A DNA stretch of 64,000 nt from Escherichia coli. Lineage in GTDB: Bacteria > Pseudomonadota > Gammaproteobacteria > Enterobacterales > Enterobacteriaceae. This document shows positions 28,160 through 59,557 of the stretch, piece by piece. Position 1 is the stretch's first letter. The number at the start of each line of letters is the position of its first letter. The translations under genes and the position numbers were made by a program. The notes under the pieces are model-generated. The model had not been told where the DNA came from and did not search any database. It was given only the letters and a program-made list of their open reading frames with translations. Location of the stretch: NCBI RefSeq assembly GCF_030384885.1, contig NZ_CP128613.1. One strand, given 5' to 3'.

Positions 28160-28325
28160 GCGGTATAACCTGAAATGGGTCCAATAAGAGTAAATCTCCA
28201 CGGCCCCCACTTTACCAGTTGGTGAGATTTATCCGAAGCTGAAGTTTGTAAATTCCTCCCACTGAATGCAACATTCACTCTATTTCAGAGAAATATCCGT
28301 TAAATTGATAAATTAAATAAATAAT

Positions 28326-28358
28326 AAACCCATAATCATTTATTGTAATTATGGGTTT
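28326..28358 (-). terminator. AT-rich hairpin between entF and fepE (possible terminator/attenuator)
   Basis: perfect 11-bp inverted repeat aaacccataat / attatgggttt with 11-nt loop, U-rich tract downstream on the minus strand. Confidence 0.35.
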
Positions 28359-28373
28359 ATAGATAATATAAAT

Positions 28374-31300
28374 TTACTTATTTAGCGCCGCACGAATAAT
28401 TGGCCCTATTTTTTCAAACGCCATCGGCGAGATAATATCCACATGCGCGCAATCATGACGATAGATATCCAGCTCCGCAATCCATGGTGCCCAGGCCCGT
28501 TCGGGAGTCATCCCCTCCTGAAGCGTGCGTTCGGCAACAAACAGCGTCGCTTTTCCATCAAACGGAACACTATGGGCAGTGGTCAACAAGCGCACTGCAT
28601 CAGCGTAGTTGCCTTCAATGGTGGTAAACAGCTCCGTTGAAGTATTTCCCTGCTGTGCCGCCAGGAAAGCTTCACGTTCGCGGTTAATCTCCGCCAACAC
28701 TTCCGGGTCCAGACCATTAGCTTCTTTTTCCTGCCAGTTCTGCGTTTCTGGCGGCCAGGTATCCAGCAAGCCAAGAAATGCCACCTGTTCGCCACGCGCA
28801 CGCAGCCGTGCCGCAATCCCCTGCGCCAGCGTACCGCCCAGCGAATACCCCAGCAGGTAATAAGGGCCGTGCGGTTGTTGTTCAAGTAACGTTGCCAGAT
28901 GCGCTTCGCAGACTTCATCCAGGTTTGCCGCCGTCTGCATGGGGCCATGAGGACGCGGAGACTGGATGCCAATAATCGACCATTGAGGATCGAGATAACG
29001 CGAGAGCACGCTAAACTGCCAGGCAAAACCAGATGCTGGATGGAAACAAAACAGCGTCGGGCCATTACCTTCACGCAACGGCAGGATGGTTTCAAATCCC
29101 ATGCGCTGGGTGCTGTCTTCTTCACCATCAATAACCGTTGCCAGTTTGGCGACGGTTGACGCGACCATCACCTGCCCCGGCGTCACCTGACGGGCAAACT
29201 GTCGACTAAGTTGTGCTGCCAGTTTCATTGCCAGTAGCGAATGACCGCCAAGCGCGAAGAAATCAGCGTCAGCATCCTGCACGTCACAACCCAGCAATGA
29301 CGAGAACGCCGCGGCGATCATCGTTTCACTGCCCATTTTCGGCGCACGCCCCGGCGCTTGTGCCTTCAGTTCCGGCAACGGTAAGGCTTTGCGATCCAGC
29401 TTACCGTTGGCGCTAAGTGGTAACTGTGGCAGTTGCAGCAGAACCACGGGCACCATATGCGGAGGCAATTTTTCGCGAAGCTGCGCCTGCAATGCGCTGG
29501 TATCCAGCGGCAGGCCCGATTGCGACACCAGATAGCCCACCAGTTGACGTGCATCCCCTCCGGTGGCTGCCGCCTGATTAATCACACAAGCGTGGGTAAC
29601 TGCTTGCTCGACATCCGGCAGCGCCTGCATCACACGATCGATTTCGCCCAGTTCAATCCGCTGACCACGAATTTTTAGCTGATCATCACTACGCCCGAGA
29701 TACTCCACCGCGCCGTTATCCAGCCAGCGGGCAACATCTCCGGTACGGTACATGCGTTCACCGGGCGCGAAAGGATCGGCAATAAAGCGGCTGGCTGTCA
29801 GATCGGGTCGTCCAAGATACCCCTGCGCCAGTTGAATACCGGTGAGATAGAGATCGCCTGCCACACCCGGCGGCACCGGATGCATCATCGCATCGAGAAT
29901 GCGCAGGCCCGTGTTCCACACCGGGTAGCCAATCGGCACACTGCTGCCGCGTACCGCTGCAAGTTCAGCACCAAAGGCTGGATACCAGCTCACATCCACC
30001 GCCGCTTCCGTCGGGCCATAAAGATTATGTAACGGCGCGCCGGTTAACTGTTGCCATTCGCGACATAAATCGGCTGGTAAGGCTTCTCCGCTACAGAAAA
30101 CCTGTTTCAACGTCGCGCAACTCTGGCGAGCGGTTTCCGGCGTCAACGAAGCAACAAACGCCGCCAGCATCGACGGTACAAAATGCGTGGTCGTTACGCC
30201 ATATTCGGCAAAGAATTGCTGCATAGCGAGCGGATCGCGGTGCGCTTCCGGTTCAGCCATCACCAGTTTCGCCCCGGCAATAAACGGCCAGAAAAACTCC
30301 CACACCGAGACATCAAAACTGCACGGCGTTTTTTGGGCAACGACATCTTCGCCTGTAAGCGGGTAGTGGTTTTGCATCCAAAGCAGGCGGTTAACGATAG
30401 CCGTCTGCCCGACCATTACCCCTTTCGGCCTGCCGGTGGAACCGGAGGTAAAGATGATATAAGCCGTGTGGTGCGGTTGTGAAAGTTGCAGCGGCGCACT
30501 GCCCTGCGGTGTAAGCGGGGCGTTATAGCAAAGACTGGTTAAATTGGGGATATCGCTAAAGCGCGGCAGTTGATCATCGGTGGTGATTAACAGTGACGGA
30601 CGCGCATCTTCCAGCATCATTTTCAGGCGATCGTCCGGATAGCCCGTATCCAGCGGTAGCCAGGCCGCACCTGCTTCAACTATCGCATGTAGCGCCATAG
30701 TCAAAAAGACCGAGCGCGGTAGTGCCACCGCTACGCTGTCGCCAGGTTTAACGCCGCGCTCACGCAGCAGATTCGCCAGCGCCACCACCTGCTCGCGCAT
30801 TTCCCGATAACTGAACTGGTAACGCACATCTGCCAGTGCCGGAGCATCCGGCGTTTTTGCCGCCTGTTCTGCCACCAGCGCGCTCAGTGTGGTTTCTGGA
30901 ATCTCAACCTGAGTGGCGTTGATCTGCGCCAGCTGTGCATACTCTTCTGGCAGCATAATATCGACATCGCCGCACAACCGCGCCGGATCCGCGGCAAACT
31001 GCACCGTCAGCATTTTCAGCCGTTCAGCATGCTGGATTAGCGTTGGCTCATCGTAACGCTGTTTATTGGCGAGGATCTCAATACTCAAATCACCGTTTTC
31101 ATCCGGGAAAAGGGCCAGTTCAAGGTCATTAACCGGACCGGTTGCCAGGGTATGGGTTTGCGCCTGTACCCCCGGAATATCTAACTGATAATCAAATACT
31201 TTAATATTGAGCACCGGACCGAACAGCGGTTCCTCTCCCGCCGCGCGCCCGCTGTCACGGACAATTTGTTCGGCATCGTAACGTTGATGACGACGCATTT

Positions 31301-44208: not shown

Positions 44209-47200
44209 TTATTTCCGTACCCGATGTCGGTGCAGCCACATCAGCTTATACGCCGCCGGGATAATAAACAGCGACAGCAAAGGTGCGGTGATCATGCCGC
44301 CAATCATCGGCGCGGCAATCCGGCTCATCACCTCTGAACCTGCCCCCGTTCCCCACAAAATCGGCAGCAGACCCGCGATAATCACCGCCACCGTCATCGC
44401 TTTCGGGCGCACGCGCAGTACCGCGCCGTGATATAACGCTTCATCCAGCTTCTGCTCGCTGAATGTTTGCGGGTTATCCAGGGATGGCTCTGCCTCTATG
44501 GCGTGACGTAAATACATCAGCATCACCACGCCAAATTCGGCGGCGACTCCCGCGAGGGCGATAAAGCCAGTGCCCGTTGCCACGGAAAGATGAAAGCCCA
44601 TCCACCACAGCAACCAGATGCCGCCCACCAGCGCAAACGGTACGCTGCTGATAATCAGCAACGCTTCGCCCACGCGACGGAACGCCAGATACAACAGCAC
44701 GAAGATGATCATCAACGTCATCGGCACCATGAGTTTCAGCTTATGGTTGGCGCGCTCCAGTAGCTCGAACTGCCCGGAGAATGCCACGCTGGTGCCCGGT
44801 TTTAACTGCACTTTCTCGGCAATCGCTTTTTGCAAATCGTGAACCACCGACACCATGTCACGATCGCGGGCATCGATATAAATCCAGCTCGTCGGGCGCG
44901 CATTCTCGGTTTTCAGCATCGACGGTCCAGTGGAGACTTTAACGTCGGCCACATCCGCCAGGGTGATTTGCTGCTTCATCGGCGTCAGGATCGGTAGCTG
45001 GCGCAGCGCCTGTGGGCTATCGCGCCAGCTTTGCGGATAACGCAGATTAATTGGATAACGGGCAATCCCTTCCACCGTTTCACCAACCATCGCCCCGCCC
45101 ACCGCAGATGTCACAAACAACTGCACATCCGCCACCGTCATACCGTAACGGGCGGCTTTTTCACGGTTGATCTCAACGTTGATATAGCGCCCACCTTCCA
45201 GACGTTCAGCAAGGGCTGAAGCCACGCCTGGCACCGTTCGCGCCACTTCTTCAATTTGCTCCGCCATCGCGTCGATATCCGCCAGCACAGTGCCGGAAAC
45301 TTTAATGCCGATGGGGCTTTTAATGCCAGTCGAGAGCATATCGATACGGTTACGGATTGGCGGCACCCACAGATTCGCCAGCCCCGGCAGACGCACGGTG
45401 TTGTCCAGTTCCTCAATGATTTTGTCCATCGTCATGCCTGGCCGCCACTGATCCTGTGGCTTAAGCTGAATGGTCGTTTCTACCATCTCCAGCGGAGCAG
45501 AATCGGTGGCGGTTTCCGCTTTCCCGGTTTTGCCAAACACCCGCGCCACTTCCGGCACGCTCATAATCAGCTTGTCGGTTTTTTGCAGCATACTCGCCGC
45601 CTCTGCTGCGGAAATCCCCGGCAGCGTCGATGGCATATACAACAAGTCGCCTTCATTGATCTGCGGTAAAAATTCTCCGCCAACTTTATTGAGCGGCCAG
45701 AGAACCGTCAGTACCGAAAGCGCCGCCACCAACAGCGTGGTTTTAGGCCAGTGCAGTACTTTCAGCAACAGCGGATGATAAACACGAATCAAAAAGCGAT
45801 TGAGCGGATTACTGCTTTCTGGTGGAATTTTGCCACGGATCCAGTAGCCCATCAGGATGGGGATCACTACGATCGCCAGCAGCGCCGCGCCCGCCATCGC
45901 ATACGTTTTGGTGAACGCCAGCGGGCCAAACAGACGCCCTTCCTGCCCTTCCAGGGTGAAGATCGGGATAAACGACAGCGTGATAATCAGCAGACTGATA
46001 AACAGCGCTGGCCCCACTTCAACAGATGCATCGGTGATCACCTGCCAGCGCGTTTTATTATCCAGCGTGGCGTCAGGATGCTGGTGCTGCCACTCTTCCA
46101 GCCGTTTATGCGCATTCTCGATCATGACGATAGCGGCATCGACCATCGCCCCGACGGCAATCGCAATACCGCCCAGCGACATAATATTGGCATTCAGCCC
46201 CTGGAAGTGCATGATAATAAAAGCAATACACAACCCCAGCGGCAACGAAATAATCGCCACCAGTGCCGAGCGCACATGCCAGAGAAACAGCGCGCAGACA
46301 ACCGCCACCACAATAAACTCTTCCAGCAACTTGCTGCTGAGGTTGTCGATGGCGCGGTCAATGAGCTGGCTGCGATCGTATGTTGTAACTATCTCCACGC
46401 CTTCCGGCAGACTGCTTTTCAGCGTTTCCAGTTTGTCCTTCACGGCGGCGATCACTTCACGGGCGTTTTTGCCGGAGCGCAGGATCACCACCCCGCCCGC
46501 CACTTCGCCTTCACCATTGAGTTCGGCAATGCCCCGGCGCATCTCCGGGCCAATCTGGACCTTCGCAACATCACGCAGATAAACGGGCACGCCATTTTCG
46601 CTGGCTTTTAAAACGATGTGATTAAAGTCGTCGAGCGTTTGCAGATAGCCGCTGGCGCGCACCATATATTCCGCTTCCGCCAGTTCGATCGACGAACCGC
46701 CCGCTTCCTGGTTTGAAGCATCCAGCGCATTTTTCACTTCGGCGAGACTGATGCCATACTGCGCCAGGCGCTGAGGATCGATAACCACCTGATACTCTTT
46801 CACCACACCGCCCACCGACGCCACTTCCGCAACGTCAGGGATGGTTTTCAGCTCATATTTGAGAAACCAGTCCTGCAATGAACGTAAATCGGCCAGATCG
46901 TGCTTACCGCTGCGATCCACCAGCGCGTATTCATAGATCCAGCCAACACCCGTGGCATCTGGCCCCAACTCGGCGCTGACTCCCGCAGGCAGCTTACCCT
47001 GTACCTGGTTGAGGTACTCCAGCACCCGCGAGCGCGCCCAGTACGGATCGGTGCCATCTTCGAAAATGACATATACATAAGAGTCGCCAAACTGCGAGAA
47101 ACCGCGCACAGTCTTCGCGCCAGGTACTGACAACATGGTGGTGGTTAGTGGATAAGTCAACTGATTTTCAACGATTTGCGGTGCCTGACCGGGATAGCTG

Positions 47201-47352
47201 GTTTTAATAATCACCTGCACATCGGAGAGATCCGGCAGCGCATCCACTGGCGTGTTAATGATAGTCCAGGTGCCCCAGATACTCAGAAACAACGCGCCGA
47301 TCAGCACCAGAAAACGGTTCGCCACCGAGCGACGAATAATCCATTCAATCAT
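44209..47352 (-). CDS. cusA: Cu(I)/Ag(I) efflux RND transporter
   Basis: 1047-aa RND pump recognised as CusA. Confidence 0.95.
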
Positions 47353-47363
47353 TGGTTATTCCC

Positions 47364-48587
47364 TCAATGCGCATGGGTAGCACTTTCAGAGCGCATCCGC
47401 TCCAGTGCGCCAGAAATATTGGCTTCAGAATCAATCAGGAACAGGCCGCTGGAAACCACCTTTTCACCTTCCGCCAGACCAGAACGTAGCGCGGTGACGC
47501 CTTGCGACGCCTGGAAAACAGCAACGCGTTTCGGTACAAAGCGCCCGTCGGCATCAACGGTAATCACCCGCTGTTCGTTACCAGTATCAATCAGTGCCTG
47601 TGACGGAATGAGCAGCATCGGTTCGCTGGCGGTGTTGAGTTGCAACCAGGCGTTCATTCCCGGTTTTAGCGCCTCGTCGGCGTTGTCGACTTCCAGACGC
47701 AGTTGTAGCGTGCGGGTCGCGGCATCCACGCCAGGTAGCAGCGTCCATTTGCGGATGGTGAGTGTTTTATCCGGTCGTGCCGGAACGGTGAGCGTAAACT
47801 GCGAGGCATCTTTCACCAGCCAGGCGATGGACTCCGGGATCGCTGCAGTGACCCACACCGGGTCCATACCCTGAATTTTCGCGACCACGTTATCTTTGGC
47901 GATATTCATTCCCGCACGCAGATCAAACGCGGTGATCACGCCATCAATGGGCGCTTTGAGCGTAAAGCGAGTCTGGATTTTTTGCGTGGCGATCAGGCGG
48001 CGAATATCCGCCTCCGGCATTCCCGCCAGCCGCAGGCGTTCAAGAATGCCTTCAGTCTGGGTCGCCGTACCGCCGGTTTCGCGCAGCAGTAAATACTCAC
48101 TCTGCGCTTCCACCCAGTCGGGAATGGTCAGGTCGAGAAGCGGTGTGCCCTTTTGCACTTTATCGCCCACGGTGAGCGGATACACCTTGTCGATAAACCC
48201 GGCGGCGCGGGCCTGCACAATGGCAAACTGATACTCGTTGTAACTGACATTCGCTGGGAAACTCTGGGCAAAAGTCAGCGGCCCGCGCGTGACGGTCGCC
48301 GTTTTCACCCCCAGATTTTGCGTCTGGGTCGGGTCAATGCGCACACCAGACGCAGAACTCTCTTCATCGGCATATTTCGGCACCAGATCCATATCCATAA
48401 ACGGCGATTTACCTGGTTTATCGAACCGCGTATTGGGATACATCGGGTCGTACCAGAATAATATTTTACGTTCTGCGGTCGGCGTTTTTTCTGCGGGCGG
48501 TTCAGCCTTTGCAAACCAGGTAAAACCTGCCGCAGAAATAATACCGCCCGCGATCATGCTGCCGATAATAAGCGCGATTTTTTTCAT
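47364..48587 (-). CDS. cusB: Cu(I)/Ag(I) efflux membrane fusion protein
   Basis: 407-aa ORF recognised as CusB. Confidence 0.93.
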   Translation of the reverse strand: MKKIALIIGSMIAGGIISAAGFTWFAKAEPPAEKTPTAERKILFWYDPMYPNTRFDKPGKSPFMDMDLVPKYADEESSASGVRIDPTQTQNLGVKTATVTRGPLTFAQSFPANVSYNEYQFAIVQARAAGFIDKVYPLTVGDKVQKGTPLLDLTIPDWVEAQSEYLLLRETGGTATQTEGILERLRLAGMPEADIRRLIATQKIQTRFTLKAPIDGVITAFDLRAGMNIAKDNVVAKIQGMDPVWVTAAIPESIAWLVKDASQFTLTVPARPDKTLTIRKWTLLPGVDAATRTLQLRLEVDNADEALKPGMNAWLQLNTASEPMLLIPSQALIDTGNEQRVITVDADGRFVPKRVAVFQASQGVTALRSGLAEGEKVVSSGLFLIDSEANISGALERMRSESATHAH

Positions 48588-48602
48588 CTCATTAAACCTG
48601 GG

Positions 48603-48935
48603 TTACTGGCTGACTTTAATATCCTGTAATAAAGAAAGGTTGCCCTGCTGGACAAAATTAAACGCTACTTTGTCGCCAGTTTTAATTTCACTCATTTTCG
48701 TCTGCGGGGTGATGGTAAAGCGCATGGTCATCTCCGGCCAGTTCACGGCGGCAATCGGATCGTGGTGGATGGTGATTTTTTTGCTTTCCAGATCAATAGT
48801 TTTTACCACACCGGTGGCGCTAATGACCTGTGGTTGTGCCTCGCTCATGGTTTCATGATGATGTTCGTTAGCCTGGGCATTAAAGCCAATAACAGTAAAC
48901 AGACTGAACATTGCGACTTGCAGTGCTTTTTTCAT
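48603..48935 (-). CDS. cusF: periplasmic Cu(I)/Ag(I) metallochaperone
   Basis: 110-aa ORF with signal peptide and His/Met-rich segment; recognised as CusF. Confidence 0.92.
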   Translation of the reverse strand: MKKALQVAMFSLFTVIGFNAQANEHHHETMSEAQPQVISATGVVKTIDLESKKITIHHDPIAAVNWPEMTMRFTITPQTKMSEIKTGDKVAFNFVQQGNLSLLQDIKVSQ

Positions 48936-48958
48936 TTATTCTCTCCTGAAGTTAAAAA

Positions 48959-50341
48959 TTATTGCTGCCAACCGCCCCCTAAGGCGGTATATAAAGAAAT
49001 TTCGTTAACCTGACGGGCATAATTCAGGTCGAGTAAAGTTTGTCGGGTTGCAAATAAGGAACGCTCGGCATCCAGCACTTCCAGATAACTTACCGCGCCG
49101 TGCTGATATAATGCCCGCGCCCGTTGCAACGTAATTTGCAGCGACGCCAGATAACGCTGCTGGGCGCTGATTTGATCGTTCAGGCTTTGACGTAATGCCA
49201 GCGCATCTGCCACTTCTTTAAAGGCGTTCTGAATTTTCTGTTCATAATTCACCACCGACTGCTGCTGGCGAATTTCGGCGATATCCAGATTGGCCTGGTT
49301 GCGTCCGGCATTAAAAATGGGGATCTGAATTTTGGGAATAAAATTCCACATCCCGCTGCTGGCGTTAAATAATGATGACAGATCGCTGCTGGCGGTTGAT
49401 ATTCCACTGGTCAGGCTTATAGACGGGAAAAATGCCGCACGCGCAGCACCAATATTGGCATTGGCCGCCATTAACGCGTGTTCAGCTTCCATAATATCCG
49501 GGCGCTGCAATAAGATTTGCGACGACAAGCCCGCCGGTAATTTAACGCTTTGCAGGCTGTCGCTGTTTACTGTCTGCGCTTGCGGCAGCTTGCCGTAGTT
49601 TCCCAATAACAGTTGCAATGCATTATTCGCCTGCGCCAGTTCCCCCTGACGTTTAGCGATATCACTGCGGGTACTTTCTATCACCCCGCGAGCCTGTTCC
49701 AGCGCCAGAACATTGCTGCTACCGGTCAACAGTTGTTTTTCAACAAACGCATATGACTGCTGATAATTACGCAGCGTTTCTTCGGCTATTTGTAATTGCG
49801 CATAAGCCAGTTGCTGATTGAAATAGCTTTGCGCGACATTAGAAACTAGCAGAATATGCACCGCGCGCTGAGCTTCCTCAGTGGCTAAATAATTTTGTCG
49901 CTCGGCTTCGCTCATGTTCTTTAAGCGACCGAAAAAATCGAGATCAAAGCTGGCGTTAAGGCCAGTCGAGAACTCCCGCGTCGTGGCTGAATCGCCTTTA
50001 AGATTGCCGCTCCAGCTGCCGCTACCCTCGCCATTGAGCTGCGGGTAGCGGTCGGCATCGGTCAGACGATATTGCGCCCGTGCCTCCTGCACTTTCAGTG
50101 TCGCCATGCGCAAATCCCGGTTATTCACCAGCGCCTCGCTAATCAGCGTCTTCACCTGATTATCAACAAAAAAGGTGCGCCAGCCCGCGTTCTGGTAGTT
50201 ATCTACCGCGTTAACCAGGCCGTTCTGGCTGAGTGAGAACTGCTGCGGCACGGGCATTGCCGGACGCTGATAATCCGGTGCCAGTGAACAACCGGTTAGC
50301 GCAAGGGCCACACAAAATGGCAGAAGTTTACAAGGAGACAT
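48959..50341 (-). CDS. cusC: Cu(I)/Ag(I) efflux outer membrane factor (lipoprotein)
   Basis: ORF recognised as CusC; start at MSPCKLLPFCVALALTGC lipobox; the ORF-track start at 50347 is a GTG two codons upstream. Confidence 0.9.
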   Translation of the reverse strand: MSPCKLLPFCVALALTGCSLAPDYQRPAMPVPQQFSLSQNGLVNAVDNYQNAGWRTFFVDNQVKTLISEALVNNRDLRMATLKVQEARAQYRLTDADRYPQLNGEGSGSWSGNLKGDSATTREFSTGLNASFDLDFFGRLKNMSEAERQNYLATEEAQRAVHILLVSNVAQSYFNQQLAYAQLQIAEETLRNYQQSYAFVEKQLLTGSSNVLALEQARGVIESTRSDIAKRQGELAQANNALQLLLGNYGKLPQAQTVNSDSLQSVKLPAGLSSQILLQRPDIMEAEHALMAANANIGAARAAFFPSISLTSGISTASSDLSSLFNASSGMWNFIPKIQIPIFNAGRNQANLDIAEIRQQQSVVNYEQKIQNAFKEVADALALRQSLNDQISAQQRYLASLQITLQRARALYQHGAVSYLEVLDAERSLFATRQTLLDLNYARQVNEISLYTALGGGWQQ

Positions 50342-50410
50342 AGGCACATAATTTCTGGTGATTTTATGCCGCCAACTTTACACGCCAGGCTCTGATTTTC
50401 CGGTGACAGG

Positions 50411-50432
50411 AAAATGACAAAATTGTCATTTT
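50411..50432. promoter_or_regulatory. CusR-box-like palindrome in divergent cusC / cusR promoter region
   Basis: aaaatgacaaaattgtcatttt is a perfect palindrome of the AAAATGACAA..TTGTCATTTT type. Confidence 0.6.
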
Positions 50433-50497
50433 GCCAATAAGCGATTGCCATCTGATCCCGCTACTCTAGAATTGCCCGGGCAACATGCGGAGGAAAT

Positions 50498-51181
50498 ATG
50501 AAACTGTTGATTGTCGAAGATGAAAAGAAAACCGGCGAATACTTAACCAAAGGGTTAACCGAGGCCGGTTTTGTGGTTGATTTGGCCGATAACGGGCTGA
50601 ATGGATATCATCTGGCGATGACAGGTGATTATGACCTGATAATCCTCGATATTATGCTGCCGGACGTGAACGGCTGGGATATTGTGCGCATGTTGCGTTC
50701 CGCCAATAAAGGGATGCCGATTCTGTTGCTTACCGCGCTTGGCACCATTGAACATCGCGTCAAGGGGCTGGAGCTGGGAGCGGATGACTATCTGGTGAAG
50801 CCGTTCGCTTTTGCTGAACTGCTGGCACGGGTGCGCACTCTACTGCGGCGCGGGGCGGCGGTAATTATCGAAAGTCAGTTTCAGGTTGCCGATTTAATAG
50901 TTGATCTGGTCAGCCGCAAAGTCACCCGCAGCGGCACGCGCATCACTTTGACCAGTAAAGAATTTACTCTGCTGGAGTTTTTCCTCCGCCATCAGGGTGA
51001 AGTGCTGCCCCGCTCGCTTATCGCCTCGCAGGTGTGGGACATGAATTTCGACAGCGACACTAACGCTATTGATGTGGCGGTGAAGCGGCTACGCGGCAAA
51101 ATCGACAATGATTTCGAGCCAAAGTTAATTCAGACCGTACGCGGCGTAGGTTACATGCTTGAGGTGCCGGATGGCCAGTAA
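50498..51181 (+). CDS. cusR: copper-responsive two-component response regulator (OmpR family)
   Basis: 227-aa ORF recognised as CusR; GGAGGA RBS. Confidence 0.93.
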
Positions 51182-52619
51182 GCCGTTTCAGCGCCCGTTT
51201 TCGCTGGCAACCCGCCTGACCTTTTTTATCAGCCTTGCCACCATTGCAGCGTTTTTCGTCTTTGCCTGGATCATGATCCACTCGGTAAAAGTGCATTTTG
51301 CCGAGCAGGATATTAATGATTTAAAAGAGATTAGCGCCACATTCAGGCGTGTTCTTAATCATCCCGAAGAGACACAAGCCCGACGCTTAATGACGCTGGA
51401 AGATATCGTCAGTGGTTATTCCAACGTGTTGATTTCTCTGGCAGATAGCCACGGTAAAACGGTGTATCACTCCCCCGGTGCGCCGGATATCCGCGAGTTT
51501 GCACGTGATGCCATACCCGATAAAGACGCTCGGGGCGGCAAGGTGTATCTCCTTTCCGGCCCGACAATGATGATGCCAGGCCACGGTCACGGGCATATGG
51601 AACACAGCAACTGGCGGATGATTAACTTGCCGGTTGGCCCGTTGGTGGACGGCAAACCGATTTATACGCTCTACATCGCGCTGTCTATCGATTTTCATCT
51701 TCATTACATTAATGATTTGATGAATAAACTTATTATGACCGCATCGATCATCAGCATCCTGATCGTCTTTATCATGCTGTTGGCGGTACATAAAGGCCAC
51801 GCGCCAATTCGCAGCGTCAGCCGTCAAATCCAGAACATTACCTCGAAAGATCTCGACGTTCGCCTTGACCCGCAGACCGTGCCGATTGAGCTGGAACAGC
51901 TGGTACTGTCGTTCAACCATATGATCGAGCGTATTGAGGATGTCTTTACCCGCCAGTCCAATTTCTCAGCGGATATCGCTCACGAAATTCGTACGCCAAT
52001 TACGAATCTCATTACGCAAACGGAAATCGCCCTCAGCCAGTCGCGCAGCCAGAAGGAGCTGGAAGATGTGCTCTACTCTAATCTCGAAGAGCTGACGCGA
52101 ATGGCGAAAATGGTCAGCGATATGCTGTTTCTCGCTCAGGCCGATAACAACCAGTTAATCCCCGAAAAGAAAATGCTCAACCTGGCGGATGAAGTTGGCA
52201 AAGTGTTCGATTTTTTCGAGGCGTTAGCGGAAGATCGCGGCGTAGCACTACGGTTTGTTGGCGACAAATGTCAGGTTGCGGGCGATCCGCTGATGCTGCG
52301 TCGGGCGCTAAGCAACCTGCTTTCTAACGCTCTGCGTTATACGCCGCCCGGAGAGGCAATTGTAGTGCGCTGCCAGACGGTCGATCACCAGGTGCAAGTT
52401 ACCGTCGAAAACCCCGGTACGCCCATTGCGCCCGAGCATTTACCGCGTTTGTTTGACCGTTTCTACCGCGTTGATCCTTCCCGCCAGCGAAAAGGTGAAG
52501 GTAGCGGCATTGGGCTGGCGATAGTGAAATCGATTGTTGTCGCGCATAAAGGCACGGTTGCAGTAACGTCAGATGCGCGGGGAACAAGGTTTATGATCAA
52601 ACTACCGGAGAAAGGTTAA
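51171..52619 (+). CDS. cusS: copper-sensing two-component histidine kinase
   Basis: ORF recognised as CusS; start placed at ATG 51171 ([10 protein letters not shown]), overlapping cusR end; the ORF-track start at 51159 is TTG. Confidence 0.88.
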
Positions 52620-53283
52620 TTAGTTAGTTCAAACTCAAAGAGTGATGTATCGCCTTCTGTTATTATTTATCAATAAAACAGGGAAGACCTTATTGGTCGT
52701 CTGAAATCGACGGTTATTCATTTTCGGATATTTACGAGATATTTAGATATGCAATTTAATCAAATTCGTGTTTCTACCAATTGTAGAGCACAATGCTATT
52801 ACTAAATTTTCATCACTATAAAAGAATCGGCTATAATATAAAGCGCAGTCAGGCATCATTAATCTCTATATTATTCACACAATCTATTTATCAAGTGAAT
52901 TTGATAAATTCCTAATTTAAAATATTCACTATTAAGCCAGCGTCTAACGACGTTAAGATGGCAATGTGCAGATCATGTTATCAGGGTGGGGCGGTAGCGT
53001 ATATTCCTTATACAAACCATCATTCATTTCAATAATGTTTATTGAGTTATTTATTATTGTGAATAAAAAGACATTACAAATATTGGTTTGACTTTGCATA
53101 TCAGGTGTTTTTTTTGTTACTCGATGTAATATACGAGCCTGTCCTTAATAACATCGTGAACCCGTCAGTTGAGTTTGTGATTATTTTGTTGAGTCAACAG
53201 CCCCCTGTTTCTCTGAAGTAAAATCCCGGACAAAATCATCACATAACCATGACACTTTTCTGATATTCCCCGGTAACGCCTGA

Positions 53284-54534
53284 AGCCTGCCCGCTTACCT
53301 GAAGGCGCAGTCTGCGGGCAGGCACCGGATAAGTGAAGAGACTGACCAGTATGCCGGAGGCCACCGGCTGAAACAGGCCGGAAACACGCAGTATGACTAT
53401 GACGCCGCAGGCCGGATGGTCAGCCGCACCAGGCACCGTGACGGCTACCGCCCGGAAACAGAGCGGTTCCGGTGGGACAGCCGGGACCAGCTGACCGGGT
53501 ATTGCAGCGCACTGGGGGTGCAGTGGGAATACCGCCACGACGCCAGCGGCAGACGGACGGAAAAACGCTGCGACCGGAAGAAAATCCGTTTTACGTACCT
53601 GTGGGACGGCGACAGTATTGCGGAAATGCGGGAATACCGGGATGATAAACTGTACAGCGTACGGCACCTGGTGTTTAACGGCTTTGAGCTGCTGAGTCAG
53701 CAGTTCAGCCGGGAAAGGCAGCCGCATCCGTCCGTGGCCCCGCAGTGGGTGACGCGGACGAGCCATGCGGTAAGCGACCTGACAGGCCGCCCGGTGATGC
53801 TCTTTAACAGTGAAGGTAAAACCGTCTGGCGGCCGGGACAGACCAGCCTGTGGGGGCTGGCACTCAGCCTGCCCGCAGACACCGGCTACCCGGACCCGCG
53901 CGGGGAACTGGACCCGGAAGCCGACCCCGGCCTGCTGTATGCAGGACAGTGGCAGGATGCAGAATCCGGGCTGTGCTATAACCGGTTCCGGTACTACGAG
54001 CCGGAAACCGGGATGTACCTGGTGAGTGACCCCCTGGGGCTGGCCGGGGGGGAGCAGACTTACCGGTATGTGCCTAATCCATGTGGGTATGTTGATCCTT
54101 TGGGATTAGCAACGTGTCCCATAATCAGACAGCGGGTGCTTGCTAACCTCGAAGCCAGTCGGGCAGCAAGAGTTACATCAAATTTTGGTAAGCCTCTGGT
54201 TCAGGGAAATAAAACGATTGGCGATAAAGTAAGGGATATAATTGCCAAAGAGAGGGGAACCACTCTAATTGAACAAAATTATAGAGTGACAGGAGGATTA
54301 AGGCGTATTGACGTTGTTGATGGAGTAACGGGTATTGAATCTAAAGTCGGTCGAACAGGGATAACTGCCCGAGTACGGCAAGAGGTAGCCCGTGATATTA
54401 AGATTTTGAGAAGTGGGCAACTTGATCAAATTGAATGGGTGTTTACAAGAAGTCCAACTACAGGGAAGATTGGGCCAACTAAACCACTTGAAGATCTGTT
54501 AAATAAACATGGTATACCGATTATTTATCGATAA
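53284..54534 (+). pseudogene. 5'-truncated Rhs remnant: ~275 aa of Rhs core C-terminus plus a ~141-aa polymorphic C-terminal toxin domain (orphan rhs-CT)
   Basis: open frame from 53284 with YD-repeat-like residues and the terminal DPxGL(x)nDPLGL motif; C-terminal domain begins at 54109 where GC content drops; first ATG at 53416; the >1000-aa N-terminal part of a full Rhs is absent. Confidence 0.7.
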
Positions 54535-54545
54535 GGAGTGATAGT

Positions 54546-55103
54546 GTGAAACTCAAACCGATTGGTGATTTTTTAATTAATAGTGGGTTCGTGAAAAATA
54601 GTGACACTGACTTTTATAAAGTGCATGATAAGTTTGTATACTGTATAAATTTTCAAAAAAAGAGCACGGGTGATATTTTTTTTATAAACACAGGTGTTCA
54701 TCCTATATTCGAAGGTTTTTGCAATGAACTACCAACAAAAGAAATAGATTGCTACATTCGTAATCGTGTGTGTGATGGACTAAGTATATCTTTGCTGAAT
54801 TCTTTTGAAGGTGATGAATTTGTTATCAATGAGATAAAGGATAAAGCGTTTTGTTTTTTTGAATACTTTGATTCATTGAATAAAATATTCGATAGTATTC
54901 GTGTTGTCGATATTGAAGAGAGAAATATTTGCGATGAGCTAAGTAATGTAAGTAGCGTAAGATTAGCTTTGATGTGTATGAACTACCAATATGAGAAAAA
55001 AAATTTGGGACTTGCTTCAGATTTTGCGAACTATGGTCTTGCTATATCTAGAGGCCCGGTACCGAAAAAAGCATTTAAGGATATGATAAAAAAAATAGAG
55101 TGA
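54546..55103 (+). CDS. putative cognate immunity protein of the Rhs-CT toxin
   Basis: 185-aa AT-rich ORF starting with GTG 7 nt after an AGGAG RBS and 12 nt after the rhs-CT stop; typical position and composition of Rhs immunity genes; no recognisable domain. Confidence 0.5.
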   Translation: MKLKPIGDFLINSGFVKNSDTDFYKVHDKFVYCINFQKKSTGDIFFINTGVHPIFEGFCNELPTKEIDCYIRNRVCDGLSISLLNSFEGDEFVINEIKDKAFCFFEYFDSLNKIFDSIRVVDIEERNICDELSNVSSVRLALMCMNYQYEKKNLGLASDFANYGLAISRGPVPKKAFKDMIKKIE

Positions 55104-55109
55104 TATCTA

Positions 55110-55425
55110 ATCCGCTGTAATGCCAATTGTCTGTGTACAGAGAAGGTTAACGGCCTGGATGAGACAATCGTCTACACATGGGACGCTGCAGGCCGCCTGG
55201 CAGAAATCATCGCCCCGGAAGGGAAAACGCAGTACGCGTATGACAAATCCGGCAGGCTGACGGGTATCTTCAGCCCGGACGGCATATCACAGCGCACCGG
55301 CTACGACGAACGCGGGCGGGTGAATGTCGCCACGCAGGGCAGACGGGCCATTGAATACCACTACCCAGGGAAAGATCACGTAACGCTGCTTTTTTGTACT
55401 AAACAATTCGAATTTTATGTTTAAA
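55110..55425 (+). pseudogene. internal Rhs core fragment (YD-repeat segment) without start codon
   Basis: translates to ...VYTWDAAGRLAEIIAPEGKTQYAYDKSGRLTGIFSPDGISQRTGYDERGR..., i.e. Rhs YD repeats, ending in a short divergent tail; GC-rich. Confidence 0.5.
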
Positions 55426-55509
55426 AATTGAGATATTCCTCATTACCTGAAGCTGTTTTTTATTGCTTATACATGATCAAATACTCCTTACATAATTAAG
55501 GAGAACAAA

Positions 55510-56643
55510 ATGGAACTTAAAAAATTGATGGAACATATTTCTATTATCCCCGATTACAGACAAGCCTGGAAAGTGGAACATAAATTATCGGACATTCTAC
55601 TGTTGACTATTTGCGCCGTTATTTCGGGTGCAGAAGTTTGGGAAGATATAGAGGATTTTGGGGAAACACATCCCGATTTTTTGAAGCAATATGGTGATTT
55701 TGAAAATGGTATTCCTGTTCACGATACCATTGCCAGAGTTGTATCCTGTATCAGTCCTGCAAAATTTCACGAGTGCTTTATTAACTGGATGCGTGACTGC
55801 CATTCTTCAGATGATAAAGACGTCATCGCAATTGATGGAAAAACACTCCGGCATTCTTATGACAAGAGTCGCCGCAAGGGAGCGATTCATGTCATTAGTG
55901 CGTTCTCAACAATGCACAGTCTGGTCATCGGACAGATCAGGACGGATGAGAAATCCAATGAAATTACAGCTATCCCAGAACTTCTTAACATGCTGGATAT
56001 TAAAGGAAAAATCATCACAACTGATGCGATGGGTTGCCAGAAAGATATTGCAGAGAAGATACAAAAACAGGGAGGTGATTATTTATTCGCTGTAAAAGGA
56101 AACCAGGGGCAGCTAAATAAAGCCTTTGAGGAAAAATTTCCGCTGAAAGAATTAAATAATCCAGAGCATGACAGTTACGCAATGAGTGAAAAGAGTCACG
56201 GCAGAGAAGAAATCCGTCTTCATATTGTTTGCGATGTCCCTGATGAACTTATTGATTTCACGTTTGAATGGAAAGGTCTGAAGAAATTATGCGTGGCAGT
56301 CTCTTTTCGGTCAATAATAGCAGAACAAAAGAAAGAGCCAGAAATGACGGTCAGATATTATATCAGTTCTGCTGATTTAACCGCAGAGAAGTTCGCCACA
56401 GCAATCCGAAACCACTGGCACGTGGAGAATAAGCTGCACTGGCGTCTGGACGTGGTAATGAATGAAGACGACTGCAAAATAAGAAGAGGAAATGCAGCAG
56501 AATTATTTTCAGGGATACGGCACATCGCTATTAATATTTTGACGAATGATAAGGTATTCAAGGCAGGGTTAAGACGTAAGATGCGAAAAGCAGCCATGGA
56601 CAGAAACTATCTGGCGTCAGTCCTTGCTGGGAGCGGGCTTTAG
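55510..56643 (+). CDS. H-repeat-associated protein (ISAs1-family transposase)
   Basis: 377-aa ORF recognised as YhhI/YdcC/YbfD-type H-rpt protein; AAGGAGAA RBS; sits downstream of the Rhs fragments as in Rhs elements. Confidence 0.85.
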
Positions 56644-56681
56644 TGAGTAGGCCACCGGAACCTCCCCGACAGCCTCTCGCA

Positions 56682-56715
56682 GAACCGTACGTGAAACTCT
56701 CGCTTCATACGGCTC
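56682..56715 (-). ncRNA. group II intron catalytic domain V
   Basis: minus-strand sequence GAGCCGUAUGAAGCGAGAGUUUCACGUACGGUUC matches the domain V consensus (AGC triad, GUAU...ACGUAC helix) just 3' of the RT stop. Confidence 0.75.
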
Positions 56716-56718
56716 CCG

Positions 56719-58041
56719 TCAGGCAAACGCGCTTCCTGGTCCTGCTTTCCAGTGGGCAAACAACTCCGGCTTCTCTTTTGACAGCCTTTCCATTAGCTGA
56801 CACGCCTTCGTCTTTCTATACCGCAGGGTTTTATATTTCTTTCTCGCCCACGCAATCAGCGTCAGATTAATATATCTGCATACTTTCTTCATCGCTGATT
56901 TGTGGTATCTCGCGTAATAATTCAGCCACCCCGATATTATCGGATTCAGCCACTTCGCAATATCTTCGAGACTCATCTCCACCCTGCGTCTGATCCACAG
57001 TTTCCTGAGTTTTCCAATCATGCCTTTCTGCGCACGGTTACTCGCCGCCGGGCTGAAACTCGTAAAGAGGTTCCCCCGCCGGTGGTTACGTGCTCTTCGC
57101 GCTCTGAACGTATACCCCAGAAAATCAAACTGCACTGTTTCATGGTTCGCCTGTCGTTCGCTGTCTTTGCAGTAAACTATTTTCGTTTTCTCCGGATGTA
57201 ATTCCAGTCCACATTCCTGAAAACGTTTTGCCAGCTTATTCAGTAATTCCTCTGCCTGTTGTTTACTGCCACAATGAATTAATCCATCATCTGCATAACG
57301 GCACCAGGGAATTTCCGGATAATGTAACGTCAGCCATTTATCAAACACATAGTGCAGAAATAAATTCGCCAGTACCGGGCTGATGACTCCACCCTGTGGC
57401 GTACCTTTATTTCTTTCCTTCAGTGTTCCATCCGGCATCTGCACCGGCGCTGTCAGCCAGCGGCGAATAGACAGTCTTACCCATTTATCCGCACAATGTT
57501 TATCTACTGCCCTGAGTAATAAATCGTGGGGGATATTATCGAATAACCCTTTAATATCAAACTCAAGACACCAGTCGTATTGCCAGCAACGTTTTCTGGT
57601 GACTGCTATTGCATCCAGCGCTGATTTTCCATGCCGGTATCCGTATGAATCATTCAGGAAATAACGCTCCACTAATGGTTCAAACGTTACCAGCACCGTC
57701 ATCTGCGCTATTCGATCGCTTACTGTCGGTATTCCTAAAAGTCTTTTGCTGCCATCCTTCTTCGGAATTTCCACCGCACGCACTGGCGGCGGCATCCAGC
57801 TTCCCGACGATAACCTGTTCCAGATTTTGTACAGATTTCCTTTCAGATCCCGCTCAAAATCTTTCAGCGTCTGGTTATCCACTCCGGCAGCTCCGGCATT
57901 CGCCTTTATCCGCCGGTACGCTTCCACCACATGCAATTTACTGACCTGAAACGGTTTTGTCTGTTCACACACAGCCTCCTCCTGCCTACAGTTGGGCTGT
58001 GATGCAGACTGCCCGACGCTGTCCCTTCGCTCCACGTTCAT
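56719..58041 (-). CDS. group II intron-encoded reverse transcriptase/maturase
   Basis: RT motifs including GAAGVD, GTPQGGVISP and YADD; start placed at MNVERRDS (about 440 aa); the 505-aa ORF to 58236 probably over-extends into intron domains I–III. Confidence 0.82.
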   Translation of the reverse strand: MNVERRDSVGQSASQPNCRQEEAVCEQTKPFQVSKLHVVEAYRRIKANAGAAGVDNQTLKDFERDLKGNLYKIWNRLSSGSWMPPPVRAVEIPKKDGSKRLLGIPTVSDRIAQMTVLVTFEPLVERYFLNDSYGYRHGKSALDAIAVTRKRCWQYDWCLEFDIKGLFDNIPHDLLLRAVDKHCADKWVRLSIRRWLTAPVQMPDGTLKERNKGTPQGGVISPVLANLFLHYVFDKWLTLHYPEIPWCRYADDGLIHCGSKQQAEELLNKLAKRFQECGLELHPEKTKIVYCKDSERQANHETVQFDFLGYTFRARRARNHRRGNLFTSFSPAASNRAQKGMIGKLRKLWIRRRVEMSLEDIAKWLNPIISGWLNYYARYHKSAMKKVCRYINLTLIAWARKKYKTLRYRKTKACQLMERLSKEKPELFAHWKAGPGSAFA

Positions 58042-58543
58042 TACAAACGCTTCCTCACTACTACGAACAGCTCTGCCCCGGTTTCGCACATCGATACTCT
58101 CATACTCATAATTTCGGTTATTTGTATTTCTCTCTTGACATTGCGACGACCGGTTCCCGTAGTTCCTGCAAAGAGCCCGATACAGCGTCATGCCTGCTAT
58201 ACACCGGACATCATTCACGCAGCATTCGGAATTCACCCGTAAATTAATCCCGGCGGTATCACGAAACCTCCGGTTTTGATGTCACTTAGGACTAACGACG
58301 TTTCAACACAGGTTCGGGTTTACTCATCTCACTGTATCTCACATAGGATCAGATCTCGTCTGATCGTTCCCCCTGCGCTCACTACCATGGCTCTTTACCA
58401 CAGCAGCCGGGGTTGTTTGGGACCGACTTCCGACAGCAGATCCCGGTGGGCCTGCCACCATCTCTTCACAAGCTTATGCTTATTACATGCAAAACGTCCC
58501 GTTTTGCATCTTTGTGCCTACGGCACACCGTAATCTTTCCCTG

Positions 58544-59300
58544 TGTCATTAGTGCGTTCTCAACAATGCACAGTCTGGTTATCGGACAGATCAAGACGGA
58601 TGAGAAATCCAATGAAATTACAGCTATCCCTGAACTTCTTAACATGCTGGATATTAAAGGAAAAATCATCACAACTGATGCGATGGGTTGCCAGAAAGAT
58701 ATTGCAGAGAAGATACAAAAACAGGGCGGTGATTATTTATTCGCTGTAAAAGGAAATCAGGGGCGGCTTAATAAAGCCTTTGAGGAAAAATTTCCACTGA
58801 AAGAATTAAATAATCCAGAGCATGACAGTTACGCCATTAGTGAAAAGAGTCACGGCAGAGAAGAAATCCGTCTTCATATTGTTTGCGATGTCCCTGATGA
58901 ACTTATTGATTTCACGTTTGAATGGAAAGGTCTGAAGAAATTATGCGTGGCAGTCTCCTTTCGGTCAATAATAGCAGAACAAAAGAAAGAGCCAGAAATG
59001 ACGGTCAGATATTATATCAGTTCTGCTGATTTAACCGCAGAGAAGTTCGCCACAGCAATCCGAAACCACTGGCACGTGGAGAATAAGCTGCACTGGCGTC
59101 TGGACGTGGTAATGAATGAAGACGACTGCAAAATAAGAAGAGGAAATGCAGCAGAATTATTTTCAGGGATACGGCACATCGCTATTAATATTTTGACGAA
59201 TGATAAGGTATTCAAGGCAGGGTTAAGACGTAAGATGCGAAAAGCAGCCATGGACAGAAAGTATCTGGCGTCAGTCCTTGCGGGGAGCGGGCTTTCGTAA
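58544..59300 (+). pseudogene. 5'-truncated second copy of the H-repeat transposase gene
   Basis: near-identical to residues ~129-377 of the 55510-56643 ORF from [11 protein letters not shown] onward; lacks the N-terminal third. Confidence 0.8.
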
Positions 59301-59557
59301 TCTTTCCCTGCCCTGCTCACCTCCTCCAGGCACTTCCACAACATGATGACCTGATCGGTTGCCGCCTATCCTCCTCACTATGACCTTCACCTCCGCGCTT
59401 TTGCCTACATCCTGCACAATCGGCAACTTTTATAACCAGTGTAAAAATAACGTGCCGCAATAATCCTACCTATTAATGATAAAAAGCTGTCACAATTCAT
59501 AAAAAACTTTAATATACGCCACCCTAAACATAACCAGCGTTAATGTAAGGTTTTTGT

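Follow-up and report, generated by a model that had tools for sequence, protein, structure and literature searches.

An E.c.I9 group II intron at the right terminal repeat of an H-rpt element in Escherichia coli: a known mobile element at an exceptional site

What has inserted, antisense, into the end of an H-repeat (H-rpt) transposase gene of E. coli, and why at that end? The locus lies in a 64,000-nt stretch of the E. coli 2013C-4282 chromosome (NZ_CP128613.1; hereafter ‘the window’), for which an initial annotation had proposed a group II intron of about 1.9 kb on the minus strand. The element (Table 1) is not new: it is the already catalogued mobile E. coli intron E.c.I9, and the unusual part is its site. 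We consider it probable that this copy retrohomed into the right repeat of its host element, with replication polarity as the likely reason for the choice of that end. Introns of E. coli H-rpt elements are reportedly the subject of two papers from 1994, one by Knoop and Brennicke and one by Ferat and colleagues.

Table 1. The intron, its host elements and its targets in the window.
Feature	Position	Strand	Basis or remark
H-rpt / ISAs1-family (ISEc1-like) copy 1	55366..56641	+	NF033564 transpos_ISAs1; RefSeq WP_000420946.1
Left repeat tip of H-rpt copy 1, empty intron target	55366-55380	+	
H-rpt copy 1 transposase ORF	55510-56643	+	
Full-length group II intron, 1,887 nt, E.c.I9 lineage, bacterial class D	56642..58528	-	Rfam; occupied/empty-site alignment
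RF00029 match (domains V and VI)	56642..56717	-	62.8 bits, E 1.2e-10
Domain VI, bulged A at 56648 (7th nt from 3′ end)	56642..56678	-	RF00029 alignment, consensus fold
Domain V, 34-nt hairpin, AGC triad, 2-nt bulge	56682..56715	-	RF00029 alignment
ltrA, RT/maturase, 440 aa, RefSeq WP_001100277.1	56719..58041	-	Pfam, NCBIfam, RefSeq
EBS1 CGUGAU, intron nt 266-271, in a 10-nt hairpin loop	58258..58263	-	Pairing with IBS1
Part of domain I, RF01999 group-II-D1D4-2 match	58342..58459	-	93.1 bits, E 2.5e-18
5′ splice-site consensus GUGUG	58524..58528	-	Read from sequence
5′ exon, outer 15 nt of right terminal inverted repeat of copy 1 (minus strand CAGGGAAAGATTACG)	58529..58543	-	
Second H-rpt copy, first 524 nt missing, adjoining the right tip of copy 1	58544..59310	+	
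Right repeat tip of H-rpt copy 2, unoccupied target	59296-59310		

Two Rfam models match the element, RF01999 in domain I and RF00029 in domains V and VI, with scores far above the respective gathering scores of 36 and 40, which bears out its recognition as a group II intron. It begins with the GUGUG that had been noticed at the outset, a 5′ end also present in 17 other copies, and is 100% identical to its counterpart in NZ_CP027579.1. Compared with the E.c.I9 reference from ATCC 8739, which has the same length, it shows 96.3% identity, with 70 mismatches and no indels. An E.c.I9 copy at NC_010468 (2411599-2413485) has been described as 100% identical to its reference, and the intron as a class D member that targets Rhs-associated IS elements (Leclercq & Cordaux 2012, PMC3522654); the class D label, for E.c.I9 as for the related E.c.I2, stems from Table S2 of that study. 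The initial annotation had already noted reports of group II introns in E. coli mobile DNA, Rhs-associated H-repeats included. The 193-nt and 159-nt 5′ fragments that the same study found to be widespread were recovered here too.

The folding of the individual domains, suggested as a check, succeeded in part: domains I, V and VI match Rfam models, and domains II-IV are a prediction only. Domain V starts 4 nt past the stop codon of the intron ORF, where it had been placed, and shows two compensatory pairs relative to E.c.I2. Over the whole comparison with this ~71%-identical intron, compensatory changes affect 24 of the 143 predicted pairs of nt 1-500, with three more cases in domains V/VI. We relied on this comparative fold instead of the single-sequence minimum-free-energy fold of nt 1-500, which is uninformative alone (z = -2.1). 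At its 3′ terminus the intron reads ...CUCACU and hence ends in CU, which justifies the doubt that had been voiced about an AY end. AY is a common consensus and not a strict requirement, and a non-AY end is common to E.c.I9 and E.c.I2. Comparison with empty sites at both left and right repeats makes the 3′ boundary unambiguous, and the occupied versus empty sites leave the boundaries exactly where they were first drawn.

The intron-encoded protein (IEP) points to the same class of element. The program-called ORF spans 56719-58236, and RefSeq places the ltrA start at 58041, giving the 440-aa product. This protein, encoded within the predicted domain IV, matches the Pfam domains RVT_1 (6.9e-42) and GIIM (3.9e-13) as well as NCBIfam TIGR04416 (427 bits versus a cut-off of 300), carries the predicted YADD motif at residues 249-252 and has group II intron RTs as its best solved relatives. 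RVT_1 and GIIM alone were detected, with no DNA-binding or endonuclease domain, and the protein ends ~30 residues past domain X. For class D the C-terminal motif is given as LX3AX3PXLF[V/A]HW (PMC4615759); the PELFAHW of this protein fits its PXLF[V/A]HW exactly, and M and S stand in place of the upstream L and A. That the gene might instead come from a retron or from an RT-based defence system, as weak NCBIfam matches below cut-off could suggest (Drt3a at 78 bits versus 200, Drt2, retron RTs), deserves virtually no credence: TIGR04416 scores above its cut-off, the protein has a GIIM maturase domain, the ORF lies between ribozyme domains, and the insertion into a repeated target is precise. 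NCBIfam cut-offs, Rfam matches and junctions together refute that reading. With its ORF intact and its catalytic elements conserved, the window copy, which had been surmised to be intact, is a full-length and apparently functional class D E.c.I9 intron: a presumed self-splicing ribozyme with a gene for an RT/maturase that lacks an endonuclease domain.

The host is an H-rpt element whose transposase scores 414 bits against NF033564. The insertion sits at the end of the transposase ORF and antisense to it, as proposed, such that the final two bases of the TAG stop are intron bases. The 15-nt IS tip cgtaatctttccctg resumes past the intron (58529-58543), in keeping with the H-rpt 3′ flank expected there; beyond the tip, however, lies not ordinary flank but the truncated second H-rpt, which is 98.1% identical to copy 1 across 755 nt. 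That this truncated sister IS directly follows the right tip of copy 1, only 15 nt from the intron, may mean that the IS end is still usable with a 1.9-kb intron inside. The resumed tip has the same sequence as the right tip of copy 2, which is unoccupied, and shares 14/15 positions with the left tip. It constitutes the 5′ exon, holding IBS1 and, presumably, IBS2; the 3′ exon is the right-repeat interior of copy 1, read antisense.

Comparison with uninterrupted H-rpt ends, another of the suggested checks, yielded both the exact insertion site and the EBS1-IBS1 pairing. The empty sites lie between 55380 and 55381 and between 59295 and 59296, and in all copies read the order is GATYACG, intron, (T/A)A. 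The +1 base is A at the window site and T at most left-end sites, meaning that one exon contact differs. These junctions define the E.c.I9 target: it takes up the outermost 15 nt of the terminal inverted repeats of ISAs1/H-rpt elements and runs from the outside inwards. Read in this direction, the usual site is the left end, sense to the transposase, and since the two ends repeat each other in inverse orientation, every IS presents one target per DNA strand. The window insertion has the same E.c.I9 position within its repeat, 15 nt in from the tip, and differs in using the right-hand repeat.

EBS1 pairs with exon positions -6 to -1, which read AUCACG in the left repeat and AUUACG, with one G-U pair, in the right repeat. 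The homologous loop of E.c.I2, CGUCCAG, pairs with its own 5′ exon CUGGACG, and EBS1 and IBS1 thus covary between the two introns. For EBS2, no domain I segment of at least 5 nt is complementary to CAGGGAAAG; a 4-nt candidate, UCCU at about nt 240, occupies a position homologous to that of a 4-nt candidate in E.c.I2 and is tentatively taken as EBS2, its probable partner being the G-run around -14 to -11. EBS3 was not located in the intron.

How exceptional is the right end? The junction between the intron and a left repeat occurs in 86 of 5,426 complete genomes, and both right-repeat antisense junctions occur in just one, namely the window genome. All 18 other copies that were read sit at left ends, and wherever such a left-end copy has an adjoining annotated or called transposase (12 copies), the latter runs in the same direction as the intron. 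The right-end, antisense position is the exception among E.c.I9 copies and the sole unusual point of the window copy; its 3′ junction had no match in the JGI metagenomes. The window genome carries four intron copies, with 4 nt separating the window copy from its sister at the ydcC locus. Across strains, copies at least 99.3% identical occupy at least five different loci, which we count as recent mobility.

Three draft or metagenome contigs join the window-type 5′ junction to a left-repeat 3′ exon; these hybrid flanks are either true recombinants between intron copies or assembly chimeras. Since repeats of 1.3-1.9 kb can give chimeric joins, contigs L011, L012, L018 and L020 were not trusted for structure.

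The same repeats raise the question of whether the right-end, antisense position results from rearrangement between H-rpt or intron copies, be it inversion or gene conversion, or from misassembly. Such an origin would be helped by the four intron copies and several H-rpt copies of this genome, by a locus already rearranged to bring a truncated second H-rpt next to the IS tip and by the hybrid flanks at the same 5′ junction in other assemblies; that both junctions are unique in the complete genomes, and the 3′ junction missing from the metagenomes, would also agree with it. Yet the junction is base-exact and the mirror image of that at left ends, coming directly after a G and 15 nt in from the tip; the tip itself has the T variant of the right repeat, followed on the other side of the intron by right-repeat interior; and there is no homology through which homologous recombination could make that breakpoint. 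As to misassembly, the chromosome is recorded as complete and circular. We regard this origin as improbable and favour retrohoming into the right repeat. A search for the tandem H-rpt junction in intron-free form gave only two-piece matches inside single IS copies, and no empty allele brackets the insertion at this locus.

For retrohoming, the steps would be simple. The intron RNA would reverse-splice into the right repeat of copy 1, whose single C-to-T change relative to the left repeat should be tolerated by the G-U pair, and thereby leave a copy that lies 15 nt inside the IS tip and runs against the transposase. Replication polarity is the likely reason for the choice of the right end. At all loci examined (6/6, representing five distinct chromosomal sites), the sense strand of the intron is the G-rich strand by GC skew, a measure that, taken across 40 kb, partly reflects the coding strand, since the T6SS, Rhs and O-antigen genes nearby are co-directional with the intron. 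The skew of the intron sense strand is +0.038 to +0.100 in the five left-end loci (four chromosomal sites); the + strand of the window has a skew of -0.03 to -0.05 in three of its four 16-kb quarters and of about 0 in the last, which contains the intron. The G-rich strand is the lagging-strand template, and this orientation fits the retrohoming bias of the class D introns RmInt1 and RmInt2. Class D introns that lack an endonuclease would prefer that strand because nascent lagging-strand DNA primes cDNA synthesis. As the IS lies on the C-rich (lagging) strand, only its right-end target lies on the lagging-strand template.

The strand explanation has an n of 1, since ‘sense to the IS’ and ‘lagging-strand template’ part ways at the window locus alone, and a further point speaks against it: the second right-repeat target at 59296-59310 has the same favoured orientation and is empty. 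The broader proposal, that E.c.I9 picks the ISAs1 end by the direction of replication rather than by that of IS transcription and that IS and intron move as a composite, is possible but rather doubtful in our view. If true, the window locus would be the sole natural case among the 5,426 genomes in which the two directions are separated.

Whether the window copy is active today is a separate question. All annotated genes within 8 kb upstream are opposite in direction to the intron, and for want of a co-directional one the expression of this copy may be poor. Co-directional genes do lie upstream of every left-end copy whose neighbours are annotated. Scans for promoters (10 sites versus 7.5 +/- 3.1) and for terminators stayed at chance level and are uninformative on expression. 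The copy could thus be structurally intact but a functional dead end: a passenger without a splicing or donor role, rarely transcribed because of its antisense orientation to the IS and the lack of upstream genes in its own direction. The contrast with the gene order upstream of left-end copies favours this possibility, as does the chance-level number of promoter-like sites, whereas the intact ORF, the conserved catalytic elements and an EBS1 that fits its exon speak for a working intron, and low-level antisense transcription could supply its RNA. We put the dead end at slightly less than an even chance; it would bear on activity alone and not on the identity of the element.

Past bookkeeping, a catalogued intron in a sequenced and annotated genome has little significance. 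What is gained is the exact E.c.I9 homing site, made up of the outermost 15 nt of an ISAs1 terminal repeat, together with EBS1 as identified by covariation. In addition, both IS ends appear to be usable, which makes this E. coli intron resemble RmInt2, and its orientation fits lagging-strand priming. Because full EBS1-IBS1 pairing has been kept, the multi-copy lineage of the window strain should be a better choice than the ATCC 8739 copy for work on mobility or gene targeting.

The ATCC 8739 reference is otherwise the closest known system, sharing with the window copy its length of 1,887 nt, the termini GUGUG...CUCACU, the IEP architecture and the host IS family in Rhs regions. It differs in the EBS1 loop, which reads UUUCGUGAU in the window copy and CAUGAUGAU in the reference; these changes make up 4 of the 70 substitutions and leave the reference pairing at only 4/6 positions with its own 5′ exon. 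It also differs in its site, occupying a left repeat in sense to the transposase rather than a right repeat in antisense. E.c.I2 (E. coli UMN026 / 118UI, 1,891 nt) is a more distant class D relative with ~71% identity to the window intron. It has the same GUGUG 5′ end, a non-AY 3′ end (CACC), the same overall fold and an ISAs1/H-rpt host, but lies within the transposase ORF, in sense, between CTGGACG and TGG, with its EBS1 retargeted accordingly (CGUCCAG).

Finally, RmInt1 and RmInt2 of Sinorhizobium meliloti (class D / IIB3) provide the functional parallel. They live in another host and in other IS elements (ISRm17 and ISRm2011-2 versus ISAs1), and their retrohoming bias to the lagging-strand template is known (PMC4615759), whereas the strand bias of E.c.I9 is read from GC skew. 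Both nevertheless share with E.c.I9 an IEP made up of RT and X without an endonuclease domain, the C-terminal ...PxLF[V/A]HW and the targeting of IS elements. RmInt2 comes closest, as it, too, sits in IS terminal inverted repeats, those of ISRm17, and so has one site on each of the two replication strands in every IS (PMC4615759).

The element in this window is E.c.I9, a known group II intron of bacterial class D that has already been catalogued and whose ORF is routinely annotated as ltrA. In their list of Enterobacteriales group II introns, Leclercq & Cordaux (PLoS One 2012, PMC3522654) place E.c.I9 "in a Rhs region", with a Rhs-associated IS as its target, and report one full-length copy of 1,887 nt in ATCC 8739 (NC_010468 2411599-2413485) as well as fragments of 193 nt and 159 nt present in many strains. 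The window intron shares the length and termini of this reference copy, from which it differs by 70 substitutions and no indels (96.3% identity).

The first observation, an intron on the minus strand with an RT/maturase ORF and a domain V, is confirmed, and its interpretation as a group II intron is supported by both RNA and protein. Both Rfam matches score far over their gathering thresholds (see table), and the bulged A of domain VI (56648) is the seventh nucleotide counted from the intron 3′ end. In a consensus fold combining the window intron with reference E.c.I9 and the E. coli intron E.c.I2 (71% identical), compensatory double changes affect 24 of 143 predicted pairs within intron nt 1-500 and 3 of 31 pairs in domains V/VI. 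The ltrA protein matches Pfam RVT_1 and GIIM (group II maturase domain) as well as NCBIfam TIGR04416 (427 bits; cut-off 300), has YADD at residues 249-252 and finds its closest solved structures among group II intron RTs; no DNA-binding or endonuclease domain was detected in it. We agree that the window copy looks intact.

Features of the window intron and its flank
Feature	Position	Strand	Detail
Group II intron, 1,887 nt	58528 down to 56642	minus	5′ GUGUG read from sequence
Domain I match, RF01999 group-II-D1D4-2	58342-58459	minus	Rfam 93.1 bits, E 2.5e-18
EBS1 CGUGAU	intron nt 266-271, window 58263-58258	minus	within 10-nt hairpin loop
ltrA (RefSeq), 440 aa	58041-56719	minus	between both Rfam matches
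Domain V/VI match, RF00029	56642-56717	minus	Rfam 62.8 bits, E 1.2e-10
Domain V	56715-56682	minus	AGC triad and 2-nt bulge
H-rpt copy 2, first 524 nt missing	58544-59310	plus	98.1% identical to copy 1

Alignment of 18 occupied copies against empty IS ends left no ambiguous base at the intron-exon junctions: every occupied site reads ...GAT(C/T)ACG / GUGUG...CUCACU / (T or A)A.... This comparison with uninterrupted ends, suggested in the initial annotation, gives exact junctions and shows its boundaries, 56642 and 58528, to be correct. Its doubt over the 3′ end was well founded, as the intron ends in CU rather than in the AY usual for group II introns. By the same occupied/empty test E.c.I2 ends in CC; both of these class D introns of E. 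coli share the non-AY terminus.

The same alignment pins down exactly where E.c.I9 homes within the terminal repeat of the IS, a small new point. As its 5′ exon the intron has the outermost 15 nt of the inverted repeat that bounds the ISAs1-family H-repeat (left tip, CAGGGAAAGATCACG; right tip, CAGGGAAAGATTACG). CGUGAU in the intron pairs perfectly with AUCACG and, via one G-U pair, with AUUACG, while the homologous loop of E.c.I2, CGUCCAG, pairs with that intron's own 5′ exon, CUGGACG; because loop and 5′ exon covary between the two introns, we assign the loop as EBS1. EBS2 is tentatively placed at 4 nt, UCCU, facing AGGG at -14 to -11, and a search of the intron for EBS3 did not locate one. 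Since the 3′ exons of occupied sites are of three differing kinds (TAACGC, AGAAGT and, in the window copy, AAAGCC), recognition rests mainly on the repeat tip. E.c.I2 (1,891 nt), in contrast, lies inside the ISAs1 transposase ORF, in sense.

Our survey, covering 5,426 complete genomes of E. coli, reproduces the published pattern (PMC3522654), with a full-length copy in 83 genomes and the 5′ fragment only (first 193 or 159 nt) in about 2,400 further ones; E.c.I2, at about 71% identity, is present in about 170 records. The solo fragments, 99-100% identical and unannotated, correspond to E.c.I9-tr1 and E.c.I9-tr2 of PMC3522654. The window itself is 100% identical to the 2013C-4282 chromosome (NZ_CP027579.1; window base 1 is record base 2,008,083, same strand), and this genome holds four intron copies. 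The one at ydcC differs from the window copy by 4 bases, as does a copy in another isolate, where all four fall at third codon positions and leave the protein identical. Across strains, copies at least 99.3% identical sit at five or more loci, which shows that this lineage has been mobile recently. The ATCC 8739 reference lineage, about 96.4% identical to the window copy and at ydcC in the copies located, looks like a fossil and may be immobile: at intron nt 263-267 its EBS1 loop reads CAUGAUGAU, against UUUCGUGAU in the window lineage, and no more than 4 of the 6 bases in the 5′ exon next to it can pair with this loop. This degenerate EBS1 is a second small new point. A sister copy in 2013C-4282 (L021) has one of these loop changes, G267A.

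What sets the window copy apart is its position. Across the survey, the intron 3′ end is joined to a left repeat in 86 genomes, and all 18 other copies read at sequence level (at ydcC, ybfD, yafV/T6SS, metJ, gnd and other loci) lie at left ends, co-directional with the transposase in 12/12 cases with an annotated or called adjacent one, and with annotated upstream genes, where present, running the same way. The window copy sits in the right repeat, running opposite to the transposase gene as initially described, and replaces that gene's end codons TCG TAA by TAG at the loss of one serine. Each of its two junctions is found in this genome only, making it the first right-end, antisense occupancy among the 5,426; a search of JGI metagenomes for the 3′ junction found none.

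The claim that the H-rpt 3′ flank resumes on the far side holds for the 15-nt tip, beyond which lies not ordinary flank but the truncated H-rpt copy 2, with nfrB and nfrA after it. Two histories would account for a right tip set against sister-IS interior sequence: an IS-mediated adjacent deletion, or recombination after an insertion into the sister copy; no intron-free version of the tandem junction occurs in the genome collection. At least three draft or metagenome contigs, among L011 (GCA_018090145.2), L012, L018 and L020, fuse the window 5′ junction (truncated H-rpt, tip and intron) to a left-repeat 3′ exon in other chromosomal neighbourhoods (metJ, yafV); either copies of the intron have recombined there, or the assemblies are chimeric through the repeat. 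The annotated 'ISAs1 family transposase' WP_264123949.1 (274 aa; 58476-59300, plus strand) starts 53 nt within the antisense intron, takes its first ~22 codons from intron and IS-tip sequence, and is an annotation artefact of the 5′-truncated copy 2.

All annotated genes up to 8 kb upstream of the window intron run in the opposite direction, and a promoter scan found promoter-like sites at chance level only; the window copy, intact-looking though it is, may therefore be poorly transcribed. Elsewhere in the window, 44415-55103 holds a T6SS-linked Rhs element between cusS and nfrB with the H-rpt at its end, comprising vgrG, a DcrB-related gene and a full Rhs core gene, then orphan Rhs C-terminal fragments and small putative immunity genes (e.g. 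DUF4304 at 54546-55103). At ~28126-29283, three annotated hokE toxin genes at about 500 bp spacing, with frameshifted ORFs in between, suggest local tandem amplification downstream of entD.

Strand choice offers the best explanation for the right-end position. GC skew is positive (+0.038 to +0.100, partly a coding-strand effect) over about 40 kb at all five left-end loci analysed, which represent four chromosomal sites and were read with the intron set on the plus strand; in the window, whose intron is on the minus strand, the plus strand is C-rich, with skews of -0.03 to -0.05 across the initial 48 kb. In every locus examined, the intron sense strand is the G-rich, leading-polarity strand, which serves as the template for lagging-strand synthesis. 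Beside nfrB the H-rpt runs against replication, so that only its right-end target, the occupied one, lies on the favoured strand; class D retrohoming into the lagging-strand template with nascent DNA priming would then yield right-end insertion, although "sense to the IS" and "favoured strand" come apart at the window locus alone. Another favourable right-end target, at 59296-59310 in the right repeat of copy 2, is empty; it shares tip and strand with the occupied site but has a different outer flank. The left repeat of copy 1 (55366-55380), with a perfect IBS1 on the disfavoured strand, is also unoccupied, and both empty targets lie <4 kb from the occupied site. That the intron orientation fits lagging-strand priming is a further small new point. 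Class D introns lack an endonuclease, and for RmInt1 and RmInt2 of Sinorhizobium meliloti retrohoming prefers the lagging-strand template with nascent DNA as primer; RmInt2 sits in the inverted repeats of ISRm17, so that each IS offers it a pair of sites, one on either replication strand (PMC4615759).
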